Source of the DNA: an uncultured Clostridia bacterium
GTDB lineage: Bacteria; Bacillota; Clostridia; Christensenellales; CAG-138
Direction of reading: 5' to 3'
DNA length: 57,194 bases
NCBI GenBank assembly: GCA_947306125.1
Contig: CAMZFO010000003.1
Location: 1 to 57,194 of the forward strand
Shown: positions 4,867 through 38,077 of the stretch, piece by piece
Layout: every line of letters starts with the position of its first letter
How positions within the stretch are numbered: position 1 is the first letter of the stretch
The notes under the pieces: model-generated
The model's database searches: none
Seen by the model: only the letters and a program-made list of their open reading frames with translations
What the model was told of the DNA's origin: nothing
Made by a program: the position numbers and the translations under genes

Positions 4867-4975
4867 GTAACCGTAATTGTGTACCCTTGTTGAATTGGGC
4901 GAAAAGCGTTTCGCGCCGATTCGCACAATTCGGCACTCGGTTACAAATATTTTTCAGGAAGGAGTATATTCCAAC

Positions 4976-6604
4976 ATGAAGAAATTCCTCGCTCTCCTCA
5001 TATCGGTAGCTATGGTGATCGGTTTTGCCGCCGTTCCCGTTGCTGCTGAGGGTGAGGTCACATTCACAGTGGCCACTGTGAATGATGTCAATCCCGGCGA
5101 TACCGTTGCGATCCCCGTAACGATCGGCGGAGCGGATTTCGAGGCTCACAGCATCGTAACTCATCTGTATTTCGATACCGCCAACCTCGAGCTCGTATCC
5201 ATCACCAATGGTGAGGTCATCGCGAATCGTCCCGATGACGCTATGCTCATCAAGGATTATCAGACCAATCCCGGCGACATAGCCATCGGCTTCATTTGCC
5301 CGACCGAGCCCGCGACCACCCACGGCGTGTTCTACACCGCCAATTTCCGCGTTAAGGAAAGCTGCACCACCGACCAGATCCTTGACTTCAACGTTGACGA
5401 GTTCTATAACATGCCCGTCGGCCAGACCACTCCGAATCCCTATCCCGTGATAGTGACGGACGGCGCGATCAATCTGGTGCATCAGGAGGTAACTCCCGCT
5501 CCCACCGCGGCTCCCACCGCTGCTCCCACTGCGGCTCCCACCGCCGCTCCCACCGCTGCTCCCACTGCTGCTCCTCAGCCCGACAAGGCTTACTTCGAGA
5601 TGGAGAGCATGGACAACGTTGTTCCCGGCAGCACCATCACCCTTGACTTCACGGTATCCGGCAATTACGCCGCTCATATCCTGAATGCCAGGATCCTGTA
5701 TGTCGATGACGATCTCGAGGTCGTCAACGTGCAGGCCGGTCCTGTCCTCAACTCCGTTGAAGACGCTATGGTCGTTCTCGACTATGCGACTCCCGGCGTC
5801 ATCAGCATCGGCGCTATCATGCCCACCGAGCCCATGACTGCGGAAGGCGCTGTCGTATCCATAACCTTCAAGGTATCCGCGGGCTTCAAGGTTCCCACCA
5901 TGCTCCCCGTTGAGATCGTTGAGTTCGGTTATCTGCCTGTTGGCGAGTCCTTCGCCGAGCCCGTTGATTACGAGGTAGAGGATGGTCTCCTCACCCCCGC
6001 TGAGGGCGTCACTCCCGAAGCTCATATCGTAATGGGCAGCCAGTATGAGGTACCCGGCGGCACCAGGATCACCCTGCCGCTCACCATCGACGGTAATTAC
6101 GAGATCCACACTATGAACCTCTTCCTCAACTATGACGCTGACGTGCTCACCGTTGTAGGCGTTGAGAAGGGCGAAGTTCTCAATTCCGTTGAGGATGCTG
6201 CTGTTATCATCGATTACACCACCGTTCCCGGTTCCATCCGTATCGGCGCTGTCATGCCCACCGACGGCATCACCGCTGAGGGTGTTATCGCTTACGTCAC
6301 CTTCGACGTAGCCGAAGATTTCGCTGAGCCCACCGTCATCGAGGTTCAGGTCAACGAGCTCGGCTATATGCCCGTTGGTCAGGCCAATGCCGAGGATATC
6401 AATTACACTGCCGATAACGGCATCGTAACTCCCGTAGGCATTCCCGGTCCGTCCGATGAACCCGGCCCCGGCCCGTCCGATGAACCCGGCCCCGGCCCCG
6501 GACCTAATCCGCCTATCACCGGTGCTGCCAGCCTCGTTGGTCTTGGTATCGCCGCTATCGTAGCCGGTGCGGGCATCGTCATCTTCCGCAAGAAAGAGGA
6601 CTGA
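4976..6604 (+). CDS. Cell-surface scaffoldin-like protein with three cohesin-like modules and a C-terminal sorting signal
   Basis: RBS aggaaggag precedes ATG 4976 and a signal peptide MKKFLALLISVAMVIGFAAVPVAAEG follows. Three modules of about 140 aa have a cohesin pattern (G.T..IPV...., LEL/LEVV, G.I.IG, AEGV...TF.V). PT and GPSDEP linkers separate them. The tail is PPITG, a hydrophobic stretch, then RKKED. Confidence 0.8.
   Translation: MKKFLALLISVAMVIGFAAVPVAAEGEVTFTVATVNDVNPGDTVAIPVTIGGADFEAHSIVTHLYFDTANLELVSITNGEVIANRPDDAMLIKDYQTNPGDIAIGFICPTEPATTHGVFYTANFRVKESCTTDQILDFNVDEFYNMPVGQTTPNPYPVIVTDGAINLVHQEVTPAPTAAPTAAPTAAPTAAPTAAPTAAPQPDKAYFEMESMDNVVPGSTITLDFTVSGNYAAHILNARILYVDDDLEVVNVQAGPVLNSVEDAMVVLDYATPGVISIGAIMPTEPMTAEGAVVSITFKVSAGFKVPTMLPVEIVEFGYLPVGESFAEPVDYEVEDGLLTPAEGVTPEAHIVMGSQYEVPGGTRITLPLTIDGNYEIHTMNLFLNYDADVLTVVGVEKGEVLNSVEDAAVIIDYTTVPGSIRIGAVMPTDGITAEGVIAYVTFDVAEDFAEPTVIEVQVNELGYMPVGQANAEDINYTADNGIVTPVGIPGPSDEPGPGPSDEPGPGPGPNPPITGAASLVGLGIAAIVAGAGIVIFRKKED
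5492..5578 (+). repeat. 12-nt tandem repeat encoding a (APTA)n Pro/Thr linker between cohesin modules 1 and 2
   Basis: gctcccaccgcg-type units occur six times, translating to TPAPTAAPTAAPTAAPTAAPTAAPTAAPQ. Confidence 0.85.
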
Positions 6605-20319: not shown

Positions 20320-21138
20320 TCACATGCCCGCACGCTTGAGCGCGGGCGCCTCCGCGGGGTCCTGCGCGCCGCGGCCGTCCTCGATTATGAGCTTGTCCGC
20401 CACGAGCGCTATGAACTCGCCGTTCGTCGGCTTCTCGTTCTTGCCGTATATGTTGAAGCCGAATAGCTTGTTCACGTTCTCTATCTTGCCGCGCGTCCAG
20501 CTCACCTCTATCGCGTGCCTTATCGCGCGCTCCACCTTGGAGGGGGAAGTGTTGAAGCGCATTGCGATGCCGGGATAGAGCTCCTTTGTTATGTGGCTGA
20601 TGAGCTCGGGCTTGTAGAACACCATGCGTATCGCCTCGCGCAGATAATGATAACCCTTTATATGCGCGGGGATGCCCACGGAAAGGAATACGGCGGTGAT
20701 CTTTTCGTCGAGCGTCTTCGCGGTGGGGGAGAAGGCGGCGCTCTTTTCCGCGTCCGCCGCGCTCGTGCTGCAAAGGTCGAGCATGCGCTTGTAGAGGTAT
20801 TCGGGCTCGATGGGCTTGAGCATAACGTAGCTCGCGCCCTTTGCAAATGCGCGCTGCAAAAGCCCGTCGCTGCGCATATAGGAGACGATGATTATTACGT
20901 CGGGCTTCGCCGAGGGCTCCTCCGCAAGCGCCTCGAGCAGATCGAGCCCGTCGAGCTTGGGCATAACGAGCTCAGATATGAGCACGTCGAAGCGCTCCTC
21001 CCTCAGCTTGTCCAAGGCTTCCTGACCGTCCGCGGCCTCCACGAAACGGATCACGTCCTTATCCGTCCTGAACATCTCCGCAGCCGCTCTGCGGAAGGCG
21101 GCGTTCCCGTCCGCCAAAAGTACGCGATATTCGCTCAT
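20320..21138 (-). CDS. spo0A: Sporulation master regulator Spo0A
   Basis: Receiver domain with DVLISELVMPKLDG. Spo0A-specific C-terminal domain IPAHIKGYHYLREAI, SKVERAIRHAIEV and EKPTNGEFIALVADKL. Confidence 0.95.
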   Translation of the reverse strand: MSEYRVLLADGNAAFRRAAAEMFRTDKDVIRFVEAADGQEALDKLREERFDVLISELVMPKLDGLDLLEALAEEPSAKPDVIIIVSYMRSDGLLQRAFAKGASYVMLKPIEPEYLYKRMLDLCSTSAADAEKSAAFSPTAKTLDEKITAVFLSVGIPAHIKGYHYLREAIRMVFYKPELISHITKELYPGIAMRFNTSPSKVERAIRHAIEVSWTRGKIENVNKLFGFNIYGKNEKPTNGEFIALVADKLIIEDGRGAQDPAEAPALKRAGM

Positions 21139-32594: not shown

Positions 32595-34583
32595 GTGAGA
32601 AAACCAAAAGTGAAACGTATCTTATCCATTGTAATCTCAGCATTGATGCTCTTTGCTCTCGTCCCCGCCGCGGCGCTCGCCGAAGACGCCGCGTATGCCG
32701 TGCGGGAAGCCGCCGCCATGAGGCGCTGGGACGACGTGTGGAGCGCGCTGGACCCCGTTGAAAAGGAGATGCTGGCCCTTGGCGCCACTCCCGCCGAGGT
32801 CACGAACGCCGTTTATAAGGCGGCGCTCAACTGCCCCCTCATCGACGAGGGCAGCATAACCGATCTCTGCTCCAACGAGTTTACCTTCACCACCGCCGGA
32901 ATGCTCGGCGGCTACAACTACCGCGTGAGGAACTATGATAAGGCTCCCGCGAGGATGACCGCTCCCTCCTCCGCCGCGAAGTCGGTCGAGAGGATCAACG
33001 CCGTCAAAAACGGTCCCTCGAGCATAAACGTGCTCCTCGTCGGCCCCTATTACGGCTCCGACAGCAGCTTCACCGATCAGTACAGGCGCGAGGCGCAGTC
33101 CCTCGCCGAGGCGACCGGCGGTCAGCTCACCGTGCTCCAGGGTTCGCAGGCGACCGGCCCGAATATCGCCGCCAATTACCCCAATAAGGGCATAGTCATT
33201 TATGACTCCCACGGCAACTGCATCTCCTCGAAGCAGACCTCCTATCTGGATCTGACCTCGAGCACGGGCCTCACCTCGACCGACTATTCCAACGGATGGG
33301 CGTATAACGGCGGTTCCTTCTACGGCATCGACGGGCGCTATATCCAGAACCACGTGACGGAGCCCCTCTCCAACTGCTTCGTTTGGATGGCCATTTGCGA
33401 GGGCATGAAGCTCGGCGGCAGAGGTACTACGGGCACCGCGCTGCTTGCCGCGGGCGCAGCGGCTGTTTACGGCTATTCCCAGTCAGTCACTTTCGCGGGC
33501 GATTACGAGTATGAAGCGACCTTCTGGGATCTCATGAAGGAGGGCGCCATAGTTTCCGAGGCGCTTGAAGAGATGAAGGAGGTCCACGGCATTCCCGATC
33601 CCTATGGCGACGCTTATCCCATTCTGATGAGCCCCGTCGATCCCTTCCCCTCCAACCCCGACGGTGCGCAGGAGGTCTCCTGCGATTGGAATATGTATTC
33701 AAGCGAGCCCGTCGCGCTCGAGAGCTATTCCTTAAGCGATACCTCGATCGACGTTTACGAGAGCTTTACAAGGGTCGTCACGTTCGACCGAGTGCCCTTC
33801 AATGCGAATGAGTATGAGCTCGCCTGGAGCTCCGCCGATGAGAGCGTCGCGGCAGTTGCCGGCAATAACCGCAAGGTCAGGATCACCGGCGTCGGTGAAG
33901 GCGCGACCGAGATCGTCTGCACCGTGCTCGTCGACGGCAGCGTAATAGGCACTGAGAGCGTCTCCGTTAACGTACTGCGTCTCCCGACTCTCAACGAGGC
34001 GGCGAACGCTCCCGGCGGCAGCCTTGAATTCACCTCCGCTACGGCCGCTTACCCCTGGACGGTCGGCGTCGTGGACGGCATGCCCGCCGCCATGTCCGGT
34101 AACGCGGGCGTCAATAATTCCACCTCCACGCTGCAGCTCGCGGTCCATATGGAGGCCGGCGATCAGCTTACGTTCAGGATGAAGGCGAGCAGCGAGGACG
34201 ATTACGATTTCCTCCGCTTCTACGTCAATAACTCCATATACGGCTCCCAGATGAGCGGCGACAGCGAGTGGAGGGAGGTCACCTACACCGCGCAGACGAG
34301 CGGCAGCTACACCTTCCAGTGGAGATTCGTCAAGGATCAGTACGTCGGCAGCTATGACGACTGCGGCTATCTCTGCGGCGTGAGGCTCATATCGAGCGTC
34401 GTTCCCGGCGACGTCAATTACGACAGCGCCGCGGACAGCGCCGACGCGCTCCTCGTGCTGCGCTACTCGATGGGCCTTGAGGAGCTGACCGCCGATCAGC
34501 TCGCCCGCGCCGACGTCAACGGCGACGGCGCCGTCGATTCCGCGGACGCCCTCCGCATACTCCGCGATTACCTTCTCGGCTGA
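32595..34583 (+). CDS. Secreted dockerin-containing protein with a putative clan-CD cysteine peptidase domain, a Big_2-like Ig domain and an uncharacterised beta-sandwich
   Basis: Signal peptide. His-Gly (VIYDSHGN) and Cys (VWMAICEGMKL) dyad in caspase/gingipain/legumain-like strand context. Ig-like VAAVAGNNRKVRITGVGEGATEIVCTV. C-terminal dockerin DVNYDSAADSADAL...DVNGDGAVDSADAL at 34398-34580. The start is GTG 32595 or GTG 32610. Confidence 0.7.
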   Translation: MRKPKVKRILSIVISALMLFALVPAAALAEDAAYAVREAAAMRRWDDVWSALDPVEKEMLALGATPAEVTNAVYKAALNCPLIDEGSITDLCSNEFTFTTAGMLGGYNYRVRNYDKAPARMTAPSSAAKSVERINAVKNGPSSINVLLVGPYYGSDSSFTDQYRREAQSLAEATGGQLTVLQGSQATGPNIAANYPNKGIVIYDSHGNCISSKQTSYLDLTSSTGLTSTDYSNGWAYNGGSFYGIDGRYIQNHVTEPLSNCFVWMAICEGMKLGGRGTTGTALLAAGAAAVYGYSQSVTFAGDYEYEATFWDLMKEGAIVSEALEEMKEVHGIPDPYGDAYPILMSPVDPFPSNPDGAQEVSCDWNMYSSEPVALESYSLSDTSIDVYESFTRVVTFDRVPFNANEYELAWSSADESVAAVAGNNRKVRITGVGEGATEIVCTVLVDGSVIGTESVSVNVLRLPTLNEAANAPGGSLEFTSATAAYPWTVGVVDGMPAAMSGNAGVNNSTSTLQLAVHMEAGDQLTFRMKASSEDDYDFLRFYVNNSIYGSQMSGDSEWREVTYTAQTSGSYTFQWRFVKDQYVGSYDDCGYLCGVRLISSVVPGDVNYDSAADSADALLVLRYSMGLEELTADQLARADVNGDGAVDSADALRILRDYLLG

Positions 34584-34624
34584 TCGCGCTGATAAAGCTA
34601 ATCTTAATTAAGGAGATAAAAACT

Positions 34625-36628
34625 ATGTTTACCAAAAGGATCGCCGCAGTCATACTCTCTCTGCTGATGGTTCTGGCTCTTGTCCCCGCGGCAGCGCTTG
34701 CCGGGGACGTCAGCTCCGCCGTACATGAGAAGAGCATGCTCGCAAAGCTCGATTCCGCGTGGAGCGTGCTTGAGGACGTCGAGTCCGAAGCCATCGCCTC
34801 CGGTGCGGAGATGAGCGAAGTCACAAAGGCCGTCTATAAGGCGGCTCTGCAGCTCAAGCTGGTCGATGAAAAGAGCATCAACAGCTTGACCTCGAAGAGC
34901 TTCTTCTTCAAGGTCAACGGCATGGAGTGCTGCTATGATTACGTCGCCCGCAACATTCCCCATGTCTCCGCCGTCAGCGGCGAGACCGTCAGCGCCATCT
35001 CCGCCGCTGTGGGCGCTTCCCAGCCCAAGAACGGCCCCACGAGCATGGACGTTTTGCTCGTCGGCCCCTATTACGGCGAGGACTCCAACTTCACGAATCA
35101 GTATAGGAACGAAGCCAATTCCATCGCCAATTCCGTTGGCGGTGAGATGACCGAGCTTGCTCATTACGCTGCGACCGGTCCCGCCATCGCGGAGGCCGTC
35201 GTCGAAGCCGGCGTAGTCATCTACGACTCCCACGGCACCGCAAGCGGCACTTCTTCCTATCTCTGCCTCACCACCAACAGCGGTATCACCTCCGAAGACT
35301 ATCAGAACGGCTGGGCGGTCAACGCCGGCGGCGCCGCTTATATCGACGGCAGGTATATCCAGAACCACATCACGCAGGAGCTTCCCAACAACATTTTCTG
35401 GATGGCTATCTGCGAGGGCATGAAGCTTTCCGGCCGCGGCACCACCGGCTACGCTCTGCTTGATGCCGGCGCAGGCTGCGTTTACGGTTATTCTCAGTCA
35501 GTCACCTTCTCCGGCGATTACAGGTACGAGGCGCACTTCTGGAATAACATGAAGAACAACGACATGACCGTCGCCGAGGCTTTCAACGCCATGACCGCCG
35601 CGCTGGGCAACTGGGATCCCGCTTATTCCAGCTCCTCCGGCGCCGCGTGGCCCATCGTTATGAGCCCGGACGATCCCTTCCCCACGAATCCCGACAGCCA
35701 CCAGACCGTGTACTGCGACTGGGCCCTGAGGGGCGGCAGCCTTGAGCCGGTCGAGCTGACCGAATGGAGCCTCAGCGAAGAGGCCGTCGAGCTTTACGAG
35801 ACCACCACGGTCAACGTCAAGTTCGAGCGCATCCCCGACAATGCGAACCACTACGAGCTCGTATGGCACAGCCAGGATGAGAGCATCGCAGCCGTTTCCG
35901 GCAATAACCGCAGGGTCGCCATCACCGGCGTCGGCGAGGGCGCGACCAATATCTATTGCGAGATACTGGTGGACGGCGAGTGCATCGGCACCGCCTTCTG
36001 CGCCGTCAACGTCATCCACTTCCCGACTCTGAACGAGGCGGCGAACGAGGAGAACGGCACTCTCGAATTCACCTCCACGACTCCCAACTATCCCTGGGCG
36101 TGCGCTATCATCGACGGCGAGGCAGTTGCCAAGAGCGGCAACTCGGGGCAGGACAGCACAGTTTCGACCATGCAGCTCGTGCTCGATATGGAAGCAGGCG
36201 ATAAGCTCGTATTTGATTGGAGGGTCAGCTCCGAGTCGAATTACGATATGCTCGGCTTCTACGTGAACGGCACGCAGAACGGCTCCCGCATCAGCGGCGA
36301 GACCGATTGGGCGACCATCACCTATACCGCCGCCACCTCCGGAACCTTCACCTTCCAGTGGCGCTATGAGAAGGATTATTCCGTGAGCAGGAACGACGAC
36401 TGCGGCTATGTCAACAACGTCAGGTTCGTGCCCGAAGCCTATCTGCCCGGCGACGTCAACAACAACGGCGCCGTTGAAAGCGACGACGCGCTTATCGTGC
36501 TCCGCTACAGCCTCGGCCTCGCGAATCTCACCTCCGCTCAGCTTGCCCGTGCGGACGTTAACGGCGACGGCTTAGTCAACAGCACCGACGCTATAATGAT
36601 CCTGCGCAGCGCTCTCGGCGCGGCATGA
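34625..36628 (+). CDS. Paralogous dockerin-containing putative clan-CD peptidase
   Basis: Same architecture as the upstream gene (VIYDSHGT, FWMAICEGMKL, Ig-like domain, beta-sandwich, dockerin DVNNNGAVESDDAL...DVNGDGLVNSTDAI at 36440-36625). RBS AAGGAG. Confidence 0.7.
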   Translation: MFTKRIAAVILSLLMVLALVPAAALAGDVSSAVHEKSMLAKLDSAWSVLEDVESEAIASGAEMSEVTKAVYKAALQLKLVDEKSINSLTSKSFFFKVNGMECCYDYVARNIPHVSAVSGETVSAISAAVGASQPKNGPTSMDVLLVGPYYGEDSNFTNQYRNEANSIANSVGGEMTELAHYAATGPAIAEAVVEAGVVIYDSHGTASGTSSYLCLTTNSGITSEDYQNGWAVNAGGAAYIDGRYIQNHITQELPNNIFWMAICEGMKLSGRGTTGYALLDAGAGCVYGYSQSVTFSGDYRYEAHFWNNMKNNDMTVAEAFNAMTAALGNWDPAYSSSSGAAWPIVMSPDDPFPTNPDSHQTVYCDWALRGGSLEPVELTEWSLSEEAVELYETTTVNVKFERIPDNANHYELVWHSQDESIAAVSGNNRRVAITGVGEGATNIYCEILVDGECIGTAFCAVNVIHFPTLNEAANEENGTLEFTSTTPNYPWACAIIDGEAVAKSGNSGQDSTVSTMQLVLDMEAGDKLVFDWRVSSESNYDMLGFYVNGTQNGSRISGETDWATITYTAATSGTFTFQWRYEKDYSVSRNDDCGYVNNVRFVPEAYLPGDVNNNGAVESDDALIVLRYSLGLANLTSAQLARADVNGDGLVNSTDAIMILRSALGAA

Positions 36629-36642
36629 TCTGCCGATGACAT

Positions 36643-36670
36643 AAGGGACGGCCCCGCGCCGTCCCTTTTC
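36643..36670 (+). terminator. Rho-independent terminator after the dockerin-protein pair
   Basis: GGGACGGC-CCCGC-GCCGTCCC stem-loop followed by TTTT. Confidence 0.7.
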
Positions 36671-36694
36671 GTCACAGAAAATGAAATTTCACTA

Positions 36695-36723
36695 TTGCAA
36701 AACCCGCCCAAAGGGTGTATAAT
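36695..36723 (+). promoter_or_regulatory. Sigma-A-type promoter of the tRNA-Val locus
   Basis: TTGCAA, 17 nt spacer, TATAAT, about 19 nt upstream of module A. Confidence 0.55.
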
Positions 36724-36741
36724 AATCAAGCACGGAAACCT

Positions 36742-36856
36742 TGGTCGCATGGCTCAGTTGGTAGAGCATATCGTTCACATCTATGGAGCATTGCGACTCG
36801 CGCATCCTGCGGATGAAGCAGCGAGGCGCAATGGGTTCGAGTCAAAAGACTCGAAC
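36742..36856 (+). pseudogene. tRNA-derived module A: tRNA-Val 5' half, a 51-nt hairpin insert, then a T-loop palindrome; no 3' acceptor strand
   Basis: 36742-36780 is identical to 36875-36913 of the intact tRNA. A G-to-T change breaks the anticodon stem. The insert is CATTGCG-A-CTCGC...GCGAG-G-CGCAATG. It ends with GGTTCGAGTC-AAAA-GACTCGAACC. Confidence 0.5.
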
Positions 36857-36874
36857 CGTAGGAAGAACTCAATA

Positions 36875-36950
36875 TGGTCGCATGGCTCAGTTGGTAGAGC
36901 ATATCGTTCACATCGATGGGGTCACAGGTTCGAGTCCTGTTGCGACCACC
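36875..36950 (+). tRNA. tRNA-Val (anticodon CAC), CCA encoded
   Basis: Manual cloverleaf: acceptor GGTCGCA/TGCGACC, D arm GCTC-AGTTGGTA-GAGC, anticodon arm TATCG-TTCACAT-CGATG, T arm ACAGG-TTCGAGT-CCTGT, discriminator A73, CCA. 76 nt. Confidence 0.85.
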
Positions 36951-36953
36951 AAA

Positions 36954-36977
36954 AGACGCTTGAAAAAGCGTCTTTTT
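36954..36977 (+). terminator. Rho-independent terminator after tRNA-Val
   Basis: GACGCTT-GAAA-AAGCGTC stem-loop followed by TTTTTT. Confidence 0.75.
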
Positions 36978-36980
36978 TCG

Positions 36981-37085
36981 TGTCGCGGAAAGAGCATATC
37001 GTTCACATCGATGGAGCATTGCGACTCGCGCATCCTGCGGATGAAGCAGCGAGGCGCAATGGGGGAGAGTCCTGTTGCGACCACC
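36981..37085 (+). pseudogene. tRNA-derived module C: degenerate 5' end without D arm, anticodon arm, the same 51-nt insert, and an authentic tRNA 3' end with CCA
   Basis: The 72-nt block 36991-37062 equals 36763-36834 with one mismatch. It ends ...GAGAGTCCTGTTGCGACCACCA. The 5' T-arm strand is missing. Confidence 0.5.
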
Positions 37086-37088
37086 AAA

Positions 37089-37109
37089 AGACGCCGAAAG
37101 GCGTCTTTT
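37089..37109 (+). terminator. Second rho-independent terminator, a near copy of the first
   Basis: GACGCC-GAAA-GGCGTC stem-loop followed by TTTTT. Confidence 0.7.
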
Positions 37110-37116
37110 TATTGCG

Positions 37117-37132
37117 TCAACAGGACTCGAAC
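37117..37132 (-). repeat. Inverted copy of the tRNA T-arm/acceptor 3' segment
   Basis: CAACAGGACTCGAACC is the reverse complement of GGTTCGAGTCCTGTTG. It forms a long inverted repeat with 37066-37080 around the terminator. Confidence 0.7.
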
Positions 37133-37149
37133 CAAAAGAAAACTCGATA

Positions 37150-37216
37150 TGACAGGCTGTTTTGCCCGTATAGCATATCGAACCATCGATGGGGAGAGTA
37201 TTGCCCCGGATCCCAC
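37150..37216 (+). pseudogene. tRNA-derived module D: decayed tRNA-Val copy
   Basis: Aligns to the intact tRNA through ...TAGCATATCG-AACCAT-CGATGGGG.... The preceding spacer AACTCGATAT matches AACTCAATAT before the intact tRNA. No cloverleaf can be drawn. Confidence 0.35.
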
Positions 37217-37220
37217 CTCG

Positions 37221-37249
37221 CTTTACAAATACAGCCCTGTGCGTTATAA
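37221..37249 (+). promoter_or_regulatory. Sigma-A-type promoter for the GNAT gene
   Basis: TTTACA, 17 nt spacer, TATAAT. Confidence 0.5.
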
Positions 37250-37279
37250 TTTGCCTGCATAACATAAGGAGGCGATAGA

Positions 37280-38017
37280 ATGGGCTACATCAGGATAACC
37301 GAAGAGAACATCGACAGGGAGCATATCTGCTGTGCAATGTCGAACAAGCAGAGCGACATGAAAAAGCTCTGGCTCAAGGAGCGCTTTGCGGAGGGGCTGG
37401 TATTCTACCGCAGCGAGGAGCGCGGCAAGTGCTTTATAGAATACATGCCTGCCGAGGCCGCGTGGCAGCCGCTCGAGGCGGATGGGTATATGCATATCAA
37501 CTGCCTTTGGGTCTCGGGCTCGCTCAAGGGGCACGGGTACTCGAACGACCTGCTGAACGAGTGCGTGCGGGACGCGAAGGAGCAGGGGAGGAAGGGCCTG
37601 ACGATACTCTCCTCGGCCAGGAAGAAGGGCTTCCTTGCCGATCCGAAGTATTTGAAATACAAGGGCTTCCGATTGGCGGACGAGTCGGATCCCGGCATAC
37701 AGCTTTACTATCTGCCGTTTGATGAAGGCGCGGAGGCGCCCCGCTTCAAGGAGTGCGCGAAGCACCCGCATATCGACGAGAGCGGCTTCGTGATCTATTA
37801 TACCGATCAGTGCCCGTTCACCTATTATTGGGTGCCGAGGCTTGCGGAGGTCGCCGCGGAAAACGGCGTGCCTCTCAAGGTGATAAAGATCGACACGCGT
37901 GAAGCCGCGCAGAACGCGCCCTCGCCCGTTACCAATTTCACGCTGTTTAAGGACGGCGTATTCGTTACGCACGAGATACAGTCCGATAAGAAATTCCTCG
38001 CGCTCGCGGGCAAGTAA
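37280..38017 (+). CDS. GNAT family N-acetyltransferase with a YoaP-like C-terminal domain
   Basis: RBS AAGGAGG. GNAT core CLWVSGSLKGHGYSNDLL. C-terminal thioredoxin-like YYTDQCPF segment, as in YoaP-type proteins. Confidence 0.7.
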   Translation: MGYIRITEENIDREHICCAMSNKQSDMKKLWLKERFAEGLVFYRSEERGKCFIEYMPAEAAWQPLEADGYMHINCLWVSGSLKGHGYSNDLLNECVRDAKEQGRKGLTILSSARKKGFLADPKYLKYKGFRLADESDPGIQLYYLPFDEGAEAPRFKECAKHPHIDESGFVIYYTDQCPFTYYWVPRLAEVAAENGVPLKVIKIDTREAAQNAPSPVTNFTLFKDGVFVTHEIQSDKKFLALAGK

Positions 38018-38028
38018 GCATAACGACG

Positions 38029-38070
38029 CAAAAAAGCTCCCACGCATCATCGAGCGCGGGAGCTTTGCTT
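38029..38070. terminator. Bidirectional terminator between convergent genes
   Basis: A-run, then GCTCCCACGC ... GCGCGGGAGC stem, then TTTGCTTT. Confidence 0.6.
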
Positions 38071-38077
38071 TAACTTG

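Follow-up and report, generated by a model that had tools for sequence, protein, structure and literature searches.

A working tRNA-Val(CAC) gene amid broken copies of itself, probable products of tandem and fold-back duplication, that vary among sister strains of an uncultured Clostridia bacterium

In E. coli, the 3' external transcribed spacer of leuZ sponges sRNAs. Template switching makes quasi-palindromes, i.e. fold-back inverted duplications, and long palindromes lose their centres. For tRNA-integrating elements, an identity block in the 5' half of the tRNA gene is atypical, and to our knowledge split or permuted tRNA genes have no bacterial precedent. tRNA-Other of Bacillus cereus stands free as a cloverleaf and has a reported phenotype (PMC3399842), and genomic islands leave displaced tRNA fragments, as described for Islander and elsewhere (PMC4383910; PMC9897764). 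Here, we analyzed a contig stretch of 57 kb (called the window throughout) in which one working tRNA-Val(CAC) gene stands amid broken copies of itself, probably from tandem and fold-back duplication, and in which these copies vary among sister strains. The features of the array, from the promoter to module D, are collected in Table 1.

ARAGORN called a single tRNA across the whole window, the Val(CAC) gene of module B, which matched the Rfam tRNA family RF00005 well above the threshold of 29 bits. An earlier note on this DNA had singled out module B as the only canonical tRNA of the array, and both programs agreed, except that its coordinates (36875-36950) were off by 1 nt. The sequence of module B is identical in the related loci L003, L017, L122, L125 and L126. 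The sigma-A promoter proposed in the same note was borne out: it was the sole promoter upstream of both modules A and B in the promoter scan, module B having none of its own, and a TTGCAA..TATAAT promoter also heads the locus in L003, L017, L122, L125, L126 and L009. As had likewise been claimed, module B has its own terminator (36951-36976 plus T run), evident by sequence and absent from the list of a simple terminator scan; between A and B neither the sequence nor the scan gave a terminator.

The first part of module A corresponds to tRNA-Val positions 1-39 (5' acceptor strand, D arm, 5' anticodon stem, CAC loop and C39) and lies in a 45-nt repeat (36742-36786 = 36875-36919) with one mismatch at 36782, so that the identity to B reported earlier for the first 39 nt was reproduced. 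The block GAGC, which follows, was invariant in 8/8 aligned module-A copies, with variable neighboring positions. The imperfect hairpin occupies the position of the variable loop, as the earlier note had it, but it is no clean insertion: tRNA positions ~45-51 are replaced, i.e. the variable loop together with the 5' strand of the T stem. The perfect 10-bp hairpin built from the T-loop was recovered as described, and the center of this hairpin, AAAAGAC, is at the same time the start of the terminator, AAAAGACGC. In all lineages with module A the GGTTCG..CGAAC(C) stem is kept, unchanged in 8/8 copies, with differing centers. A-rich spacers ending in TAT and similar to the A-to-B spacer were found in L009, L005 and L125.

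The whole layout consists of two tandem units of ~230 bp, each with a pseudo-tRNA leader, spacer, tRNA and terminator, of which A+B is live and C+D decayed. Since module D is preceded by a spacer copy, GACTCGAACC-AAAAGAAAACTCGATAT, the colinearity of C+D with A+B extends through the whole unit, in line with the rearranged tandem duplication of ~228 bp suggested before. Module C contains an intact anticodon arm, the second hairpin copy (37017-37061) and a mutated T-loop, GGAGAGT. The shared anticodon arm and hairpin had been seen correctly, but the D arm is not wholly absent as then stated: the deletion left a 5' acceptor remnant, GTCGC, and the 3' strand of the D stem. Modules A and C share 81 nt at 95% identity (36763-36843 = 36991-37071), and the 72-nt block with one mismatch was found again. 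A 28-nt repeat at 100% identity (36932-36959 = 37067-37094) connects B with the C side and upholds the claim that C has an authentic tRNA 3' end. The palindrome that follows reads tRNA T-loop, CCA end, terminator half, GAAA, terminator half and an inverted, diverged tRNA 3' end and T-arm; its arms (37067-37095 and 37100-37128) surround the second terminator, which fits the inverted T-arm copy and the terminator at the tip of an inverted repeat described earlier. This 67-nt palindrome (tRNA 3' end, CCA, terminator) stands in C where A has the short T-hairpin. Module D aligned with B and was missed by both ARAGORN and Rfam, consistent with its description as a decayed copy. The strain-variable segment is bounded by a direct repeat, AGCATATCG (36993-37001 and 37172-37180).

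Table 1. Features of the tRNA-Val(CAC) array and the adjoining gene (window coordinates).
Feature	Position	Strand	Basis
Promoter, sigma-70-type	36695-36723	+	TTGCAA-17-TATAAT, 10/12 matches (promoter scan)
Module A, tRNA-identical part	36743-36781	+	45-nt repeat vs B
Degenerate 3' anticodon-stem strand TATG and first GAGC bases	36782-36788	+	GAGC block 36786-36789
Imperfect hairpin copy 1, 45 nt, CATTGCG-A-CTCGC ... GCGAG-G-CGCAATG	36789-36833	+	inverted repeat; exact second copy
Palindromic T-arm hairpin, GGTTCGAGTC-AAAA-GACTCGAACC	36834-36857	+	inverted repeat, 10 bp, 100%
A-to-B spacer GTAGGAAGAACTCAATAT, leader of real tRNA	36858-36875	+	copy at 37134-37150
Module B, functional tRNA-Val(CAC), encoded CCA	36876-36951	+	ARAGORN; Rfam tRNA 67.4 bits
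Terminator of B, AAAAGACGCTT-GAAA-AAGCGTCTTTT and T run	36951-36979	+	inverted repeat, 11 bp, 100%
Module C, second module-A copy with 10-nt D-arm deletion	36980-37066	+	colinear alignment with A
Long palindrome	37067-37133	+	28-nt repeat to B; two inverted repeats
Spacer copy (37134-37150), then module D, decayed copy of tRNA B	37134-37220	+	alignment with 36858-36951, direct repeats
Strain-variable 179-bp segment	37002-37180	+	absent from sister contig L002 (alignment)
Separate promoter (37222-37250) and YoaP-domain GNAT gene (37280-38017)	37222-38017	+	promoter 11/12; Pfam YoaP E = 4.9e-19

Comparison with relatives showed module A between promoter and tRNA-Val(CAC) in L125, L017, L005, L006, L009 and L038, that is in at least six Clostridia MAG or metagenome lineages. 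Copy number ranges from 0 to 2 per lineage (two in L017 and L006), with repeat periods of 126-151 bp. Positions 1-39 of module A are always identical to the resident tRNA, though the tRNA types differ by 21-23% in this part. L003, whose flanking protein is 99% identical, goes from the promoter straight into the tRNA and has no module A, while a C variant (loop AACCAT, CTCG-to-CGAG change) is present; module A is missing as well from L122-L124, with flanks near-identical to those of L017, and from L126/127. As to the empty site for which the earlier note proposed to look, module A keeps its place in at least six lineages and is missing from the sister strains L003 and L122-124. Among lineages with ~70% identity at PNPase fourfold sites, the A-specific region shows 74-78% identity; flanking intergenic DNA is ~50% identical, which is the random level, and the flanks may be non-orthologous. 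An architecture pattern run on metagenomes gave 109 matches, of which only L017 and L038 were true; nearly all remaining matches were discarded as ordinary tRNAs with a terminator that happens to contain GGTTCG..CGAACC. Because the pattern misses variants like L125 (AGTTCG..CGAACA), the module-A family is under-sampled. Contig P0164 carries a paralogous locus from which the tRNA is absent.

Part of the array might be an artefact of metagenome assembly, in which strain variants were fused into a chimera via 40-80-nt repeats: sister contigs do end within repeats (L002 starts in the T-arm, L003 ends at GTATAGC), and several strain variants coexist in public data. We regard this as very unlikely, since the order promoter-A-tRNA recurs in independent NCBI, ENA and JGI-type assemblies, in L003 (with a MEGAHIT-style k141 name) the order B, C, long palindrome appears independently, and common final k-mers exceed the exact repeats in length. 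In L002, whose GNAT protein is 99% identical, the 179 bp between the AGCATATCG repeats are missing. A coding function of the array was considered and dropped: the long ORFs at 36695-37249 (+) and 36726-37265 (-) had no Pfam match. ORFs crossing the array also lose their frame through strain indels of 133 and 179 bp.

The distribution of the hairpin speaks to its mobility. Exactly two copies of the 45-nt hairpin are present in the window, with 0 expected in shuffles, and homologous hairpins were found in L003, L125 and L017; the apical 29 nt are identical at 27/29 positions among the window, L125 and L017. Identity in two modules and related versions at the same tRNA position elsewhere are what a small mobile palindromic element (REP-, MITE- or PATE-like) of 45-51 nt targeting tRNA variable loops would give. 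Against such an element, both window copies lie inside the duplicated unit, the hairpin replaces tRNA positions instead of being inserted cleanly, and the rest of the 57 kb and ~1 Mb of related-locus sequence contained no match beyond the tRNA locus. The fixed-stem pattern of the hairpin hit one chance terminator in 185,579 GTDB species genomes, in an unrelated Eggerthellaceae MAG; IMG/VR had no match to any of three module patterns, and blastn of the A-specific 93 nt against phage and plasmid records gave none. The many scattered copies characteristic of dispersed palindromic elements (REP/BIME, MITE/PATE) were thus not seen. The earlier suggestion that a small hairpin element enters variable loops is largely refuted and hardly credible, as copies occurred only at the tRNA locus in the genomes, loci and viral and plasmid records searched. 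On inspection, the hairpins also fitted no K-turn, attC or dif-like consensus.

Neither did the modules belong to a described RNA family. At gathering score, Rfam 15 returned tRNA only, in keeping with the previous failure to match the array to any known family, and at E <= 10 the sub-threshold matches all overlapped tRNA-derived sequence. Module A scored 26.2 bits against RF00005, below threshold and over 36743-36799 only; modules C and D had no Rfam tRNA match at E <= 10, and ARAGORN called none of A, C and D. We read the array as belonging neither to the mobile hairpins nor to any known RNA family.

A Pfam scan of 40 ORFs across the 57-kb window detected no integrase, recombinase or transposase domain, which extends the earlier observation that no such ORF lies within several kb, and the Pfam families recorded for the stretches around 12 related tRNA loci included none of these either. 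This weighs on the proposal that the array consists of scars left at a tRNA att site by site-specific recombination, i.e. that modules A (and C) are attL-attR remnants or a CIME-type miniature element whose integrase is encoded elsewhere, with tandem accretion and deletion then building the array. Several features favor such an origin: displaced tRNA fragments are known leftovers of islands (PMC4383910; PMC9897764); gain and loss of module A are precise; some lineages have the tRNA block in inverted orientation, and the site hosts three sequence types of tRNA-Val(CAC); and lineages differ in the small genes beside the tRNA (YoaP-GNAT, HTH and beta-lactamase fold, CPT/acetyltransferase, DUF1538 and P-II, and others), which makes the site a cargo hotspot. 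The perfect 28-nt repeat between B and C resembles an att identity block of the T-loop type. The A/B repeat does not, being the 5' half and not the usual displaced 3' fragment. Moreover, the cargo lies outside the A-B interval, and there is no island DNA between gene and fragments, with 92 nt only between the tRNA part of A and B, 107 nt from the 3' end of B to the copy in C, and 90-135 bp between repeats in general. The A-specific sequence was not found in IMG/VR or in phage and plasmid collections, and C+D is colinear with A+B, spacer included, as a plain tandem duplication predicts. Recombination scars are in our judgment distinctly improbable, and they keep a small share of the probability because the site is a cargo hotspot. 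The YoaP-GNAT gene is lineage-specific cargo outside the array; it was rejected as a synteny anchor, as it is 75-84% identical in MAGs labeled as several families and unlinked to the array elsewhere.

The explanation that we prefer, at about an even chance, is that degenerate copies of a single tRNA gene form a cluster prone to recombination here, with debris in the leader of the tRNA. Module A would be an old tandem duplicate of the tRNA gene, the 3' half of which was probably destroyed by fold-back (palindromic) duplications that took in the tRNA 3' end and the terminator, the palindrome centers being deleted later. Such duplications would account for the inverted T-arm and, more tentatively, for the 45-nt hairpin, whose arms resemble acceptor strands. 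Module A separates the only promoter from the single functional tRNA, and its harmless removal would require recombination between A and B within their identical 5' halves. These repeats would also permit gene conversion and unequal crossing-over, which may explain both the match of the first 39 nt to the resident tRNA and the copy number of 0-2. The sigma-A promoter would drive synthesis of module A as a long and structured 5' leader, and a cut by RNase P at +1 of B would detach it for subsequent degradation. The identity of 74-78% in the A-specific region versus ~70% at fourfold sites, the pair-breaking changes and the shifting partners of the acceptor strand all look like signs of neutral evolution. 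Several observations sit badly with debris: a neutral 130-bp pseudogene with a deletion-prone 39-nt repeat is unlikely to last in six lineages ~30% diverged at fourfold sites; GAGC and GGTTCG..CGAAC(C) are invariant, the hairpin apex is conserved, against a random level of identity in the flanking intergenic DNA, and the hairpin stem has one compensatory change and two independent changes to tandem G.A/A.G; and positions 1-5 of A never vary despite abutting non-homologous DNA.

All six folded module-A copies (window, L125, L017, L005, L009 and L038) were far more stable than shuffled sequences (z -3.6 to -5.4), as was the module C stretch (z -5.8). GAGC pairs with GCUC of the D stem in 5/6 single-sequence MFE folds (L038 being the exception) and in both consensus folds. 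The check for covariation in the hairpin that the earlier note had called for gave no significant signal: among 4 distinct sequences, a very small set, there was 1 compensatory pair, an A-U to G-C change, and 122/500 shuffles were equal or better. Six pairs departed by unpaired cells only, and two independent changes turned Watson-Crick pairs of the stem into tandem G.A/A.G. The covariation terms of RNAalifold were ~0 in both consensus folds. Substitutions specific to A in the 3' strand of the anticodon stem are mostly pair-breaking, and the 5' acceptor strand of A has a different folding partner in each lineage. A T-armless tRNA fold, in which GGUCGCA pairs with UGCGAC of the hairpin arm, was discarded, as it forms in the window and L125 only and not in L017 or the type-2 lineages.

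In a functional reading, module A would be a selected, co-transcribed leader that mimics tRNA-Val and would represent a new non-coding RNA family. The mimic would display the D arm and the CAC anticodon arm, with the T-loop turned into a palindromic stem and the acceptor end disabled, which would keep it from entering translation. It might act in cis on the maturation or stability of the downstream tRNA, or serve as a sponge or decoy for ValRS, a modification enzyme, an anticodon nuclease or another factor that recognizes tRNA-Val. Consistent with this are the single promoter and the missing A-B terminator, the persistence of module A in place from promoter to tRNA-Val(CAC) in at least six lineages and with two tRNA sequence types, the invariant GAGC and GGTTCG/CGAAC(C) stem, the recurring GCUC/GAGC pairing, the 27/29 apex and the folding z-scores. 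In addition, the modules of the type-2 lineages close into a pseudo-cloverleaf, and the U.G pairs of its closing stem are U-A in L038. However, the leader is dispensable, being absent from L003, L122-124 and L126/127 and varying between 0 and 2 copies; hairpin stem changes break pairs more than they keep them, on top of the non-significant covariation and the pair-breaking anticodon-stem substitutions; the closing stem is not conserved between subfamilies; the identity of the A-specific region is near that of fourfold sites; and palindromes yield good z-scores even when functionless. Of the earlier idea of a tRNA-like leader co-transcribed with tRNA-Val, the architecture therefore stands (one promoter, no A-B terminator, A conserved in place), and a specific function is conjectural, with A lost in sister strains and covariation not significant. 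We consider a selected mimic unlikely.

If the cluster consists of degenerate duplicates, it offers a worked example of how a single tRNA gene gathers tandem and fold-back duplicates that undergo concerted evolution with the live gene and vary from strain to strain. This would be useful for tRNA annotation, because pseudo-tRNAs and 5'-half copies can mislead gene callers, and in rumen and gut MAGs the array marks a hotspot at which assemblies break. A selected leader would instead be an undescribed tRNA-mimic RNA family, joining the few cases of tRNA precursor spacers with a function of their own, and a new class of tRNA-derived cis/trans regulator in uncultured, cellulosome-bearing gut or rumen Clostridia.

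Compared with known systems, module A resembles class II tRNAs in the extra hairpin between anticodon arm and T arm, but its arm has ~19 pairs instead of 3-7 and replaces part of the T stem, and with the T-loop destroyed neither ARAGORN nor Rfam calls a tRNA. In split or permuted tRNA genes the separate 5' and 3' parts have complementary flanks and rebuild one functional tRNA; modules A (5') and C (3') share a self-complementary hairpin instead, and other lineages have A but lack C. As in the case of the leuZ spacer, a non-tRNA segment of the precursor freed by processing could by analogy carry a function, but module A itself derives from a tRNA that has degenerated, and sister strains are without it. 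Like tRNA-Other (PMC3399842) it is tRNA-like, non-translational and located beside a variable genomic region; unlike tRNA-Other, it lacks a T-loop, in type 1 also the 3' acceptor strand, and is joined to the leader of a genuine tRNA. With fold-back duplications the array has in common that a sequence is followed by its reverse complement, that the turning point differs in each lineage and that the longest version is centered on the terminator loop, the mechanism being read here from the anatomy of the locus. With Islander-type fragments (PMC4383910, PMC9897764), the array shares partial, non-canonical tRNA copies, a direct repeat, an intact tRNA and a variable locus, as well as one 28-nt repeat that runs from the T-loop to past the 3' end. 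It differs from these fragments in that no integrase was found and no island lies between the copies, in that its main repeat is the 5' half, and in that it is built of whole colinear tandem units containing fold-back palindromes.

Of the ARAGORN and Rfam searches envisaged in the earlier note, ARAGORN returned a single tRNA across the 57-kb window, the tRNA-Val(CAC) of module B, and Rfam gave no further family at threshold. ARAGORN called none of modules A, C and D as tRNA; module A scored 26.2 bits against the Rfam tRNA model, under the 29-bit threshold, and modules C and D had no Rfam tRNA match. Together with a promoter scan and a repeat finder, these searches bore out the note's description of the sequence with small coordinate offsets. 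Because of the one-mismatch repeat, module A matches tRNA positions 1-39. The 45-nt hairpin shared by modules A and C occurs in two exact copies in the window and in none in shuffles. None of the three long stop-free frames (159-184 codons) that cross the non-coding array has a Pfam match, and strain indels within them have lengths that are not multiples of three. These frames, probably a by-product of the GC-rich repeats, could mislead gene callers.

Features of the array, its surroundings and related contigs (window positions unless an L-numbered contig is named)
Feature	Position	Strand	Basis or remark
Promoter-like site TTGCAA-17-TATAAT	36695-36723	+	promoter scan
tRNA-Val(CAC), module B	36876-36951	+	ARAGORN; Rfam tRNA 67.4 bits
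One-mismatch repeat	36742-36786 / 36875-36919		repeat finder
95% identical repeat	36763-36843 / 36991-37071		repeat finder
100% identical repeat	36932-36959 / 37067-37094		repeat finder
Perfect palindrome GGTTCGAGTC-AAAA-GACTCGAACC	36834-36857	+	repeat finder
Long palindrome	arms 37067-37095 / 37100-37128		repeat finder; centre is loop of second terminator
Stop-free frames	36695-37249; 36726-37265; 36783-37262	+; -; +	
4-nt inversion, CTCG	36797-36800		
4-nt inversion, CGAG	L003 4275-4278; L125 6167-6170		
YoaP-GNAT promoter	37222-37250		strong
YoaP-GNAT gene	37280-38017		
Cohesin protein	4877-6604		
Spo0A	20320-21138		
Tandem paralogous Big_2 + dockerin proteins	32595-36628		two proteins
tRNA-Val(CAC), same syntenic site	L005 12611-12686; L008 8145-8221; L128 6156-6232		
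73- and 162-bp tandem repeats	L005 12186-12556		also L006, L007

Judged from its sequence, the array is two tandem units rather than four unrelated modules: modules C+D are colinear with A+B (alignment of 36743-36980 with 36981-37249), module C being module A minus 10 nt in the D arm, module D a decayed tRNA copy, and the A-to-B spacer being repeated ahead of D (GACTCGAACC-GTAGGAAGAACTCAATAT vs GACTCGAACC-AAAAGAAAACTCGATAT). The units differ in one large respect, a 24-nt T-hairpin in A versus a 67-nt palindrome at that position in C, which consists of the tRNA T-loop, 3' acceptor strand, CCA and terminator plus a diverged reverse complement of these. Since this palindrome replaces the T-hairpin and since AAAAGAC, the centre of A's short hairpin, also begins the terminator AAAAGACGC, we infer that the "inverted T-arm" is the remnant of a terminator-centred fold-back duplication whose centre was later deleted. 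In the 45-nt hairpin, the arms (CATTGCGAC / GGCGCAATG) look like the acceptor strands TTGCGACC / GGTCGCATG; on weaker grounds than for the inverted T-arm, this hairpin may have arisen earlier by such a fold-back process.

Two sister strains differ from the window at this locus, and the array is thus being remodelled at strain level by recombination among its own repeats. In L003, whose flanking dockerin protein is 99% identical to the window's, the same promoter runs directly into an identical tRNA, module A is absent, and the tRNA is followed by a variant module C (anticodon loop AACCAT; hairpin arm CTCG changed to CGAG) and then a long palindrome. L002, which encodes a GNAT 99% identical to the window's, fuses 36980-37001 straight to 37181 onward, so that 179 bp bounded by the direct repeat AGCATATCG are missing. 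The CTCG/CGAG difference in the hairpin 5' arm is a 4-nt inversion converting two Watson-Crick pairs to tandem G.A/A.G, and L017 carries a second change of this kind at a different stem position; such inversion-type changes are odd for random decay. That the array is an assembly chimera we consider very improbable.

Syntenic loci were gathered from contigs that carry a gene for a homologue of the flanking dockerin protein and from one metagenome scan with an architecture pattern; the sources are MAGs and metagenome contigs whose labels go no further than Clostridia, Clostridiales or Eubacteriales bacterium. The gene order is NusA-InfB-RbfA-TruB-S15-PNPase, dockerin genes, tRNA-Val locus with cargo, a 518-546-aa protein, Thioredoxin_3 and DsbD. 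Module A lies between promoter and tRNA-Val(CAC) in one copy in L125, L005, L009 and L038 and in two in L017 and L006, with periods of 126-151 bp; it is absent from L122-L124, near-identical to L017 in their flanks, from L126 and L127, and from L008 and L128, which carry the third tRNA type. Its architecture comprises positions 1-39 of the resident tRNA, GAGC, one or two hairpins, a palindromic GGTTCG..CGAAC(C) stem and an A-rich spacer. Positions 1-39 match the resident tRNA exactly in each lineage, although the two tRNA types differ at 21-23% of them. The inserts of the two module-A subfamilies are mostly unalignable; they are probably homologous because they share GGAGC(A/T)TTGCGAC and CAA(T/G)GGGTTCG. 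In type-2 lineages the module closes as a predicted pseudo-cloverleaf via a 3' acceptor-strand remnant beyond the T-hairpin (CAGAC in L038, GGGCC in L005 and L009), which indicates that module A began as a complete tandem tRNA gene copy.

The reading we favour, and to which we give an even chance, is that module A is a trapped pseudogene, i.e. a degenerate tandem tRNA gene duplicate caught between the sole promoter and the sole functional copy. Deletions removing promoter or tRNA would be selected against, and clean loss of A would occur only by recombination within the 39-nt repeat. L017 compared with L122 shows the pattern expected for such recombination; the promoter-to-tRNA leader of L003, also without A, is unlike the window's, so a clean deletion between repeats does not describe L003. 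The 39-nt repeat would also be a substrate for gene conversion and unequal crossing-over, and these would account for the concerted evolution and for copy numbers of 0-2. C+D is a further copy of the entire unit, now in decay. From the general principles of tRNA processing, module A would be co-transcribed with the tRNA and released by RNase P, as a mere long structured leader. With a single promoter, no terminator separating A from B and no promoter for B itself, the architecture fits the leader RNA proposed in the earlier note. That this leader is a weakly selected tRNA mimic is the main rival, which we hold to be rather unlikely. Module A persists in six lineages whose PNPase fourfold sites have diverged by about 30%, but it is missing in sister strains with copy number 0-2, and its A-specific region is 74-78% identical, near the ~70% at fourfold sites. 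GAGC and the GGTTCG/CGAAC(C) stem never vary, the hairpin apex is conserved at 27/29, and GCUC/GAGC pairing is predicted in 5/6 single-sequence folds and both consensus folds; however, the 5' acceptor strand pairs with a different partner per lineage and A-specific anticodon-stem strand substitutions are mostly pair-breaking. The hairpin shows one compensatory A-U to G-C change and two independent Watson-Crick to tandem G.A/A.G changes, against six pairs departing solely through unpaired cells (a tally equalled by 122/500 shuffles) and RNAalifold covariation terms of about zero. These comparisons for and against selection draw on no more than 4-6 independent sequences.

Between the tandem dockerin/Big_2 genes and the 518-aa/Thioredoxin_3/DsbD block lies what is clearly a small-cargo hotspot. 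Comparison of window 36629-38077 with L004-L009 and L122-L128 revealed different small genes beside tRNA-Val(CAC) per lineage: YoaP-GNAT; HTH + beta-lactamase fold; another GNAT; CPT/AAA/acetyltransferase; DUF1538 + P-II; a membrane protein. Several are resistance-like (GNATs, CPT-like kinase, beta-lactamase fold), and in L004 the tRNA is lost entirely. Three tRNA-Val(CAC) types occupy one syntenic site in lineages with 92-97% identical PNPase, and L005, L006 and L009 carry the promoter-A-tRNA block in inverted orientation, which suggests that the tRNA gene itself was exchanged or replaced. YoaP-GNAT, with its own promoter, looks horizontally spread, since homologues 75-84% identical occur in MAGs labelled Lachnospiraceae, Erysipelotrichaceae, Oscillospiraceae and Atopobiaceae. 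The GC-hairpin-rich tandem repeats of L005-L007, in a related species, lie directly downstream of the tRNA-Val terminator, with shorter repeats at the matching place in L009 and L126. From the cohesin, dockerin and Spo0A genes in the window, the source is by gene content a spore-forming, cellulosome-carrying Clostridia lineage, known from MAGs only.

The hotspot, the inverted block and the three tRNA types would suit the earlier proposal of scars left by site-specific recombination at a tRNA att site, but Pfam scans of 40 ORFs across the window detected no domain of an integrase, recombinase or transposase, and the genes listed near the related tRNA loci have no such Pfam family on record. The sequence repeated between A and B is the 5' half of the tRNA, and the repeats lie only 90-135 bp apart. 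We regard such scars of recombination acting in trans, left without positive support, as improbable. The suggested small hairpin element inserting into the variable region was rejected, its probability being next to negligible: across 185,579 species genomes a fixed-stem pattern matched once, at an unrelated terminator, the hairpin had no match in IMG/VR, phage and plasmid collections, and its cores occurred nowhere outside this tRNA locus in ~1 Mb of fetched loci.

Functional tRNA-operon spacers are known and are among the closest counterparts of module A. Literature searches brought up no pseudo-tRNA leader that is promoter-proximal and conserves the 5' half. Also among the closest are the pseudo-tRNA tRNA-Other of B. 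cereus (PMC3399842) and the displaced tRNA fragments known from sites of island integration (PMC4383910, PMC9897764). Having no integrase and no island, the array does not class as an att scar, nor does it class as a dispersed palindromic element or any Rfam family. We rate it as a variant of tRNA pseudogene or duplication debris.
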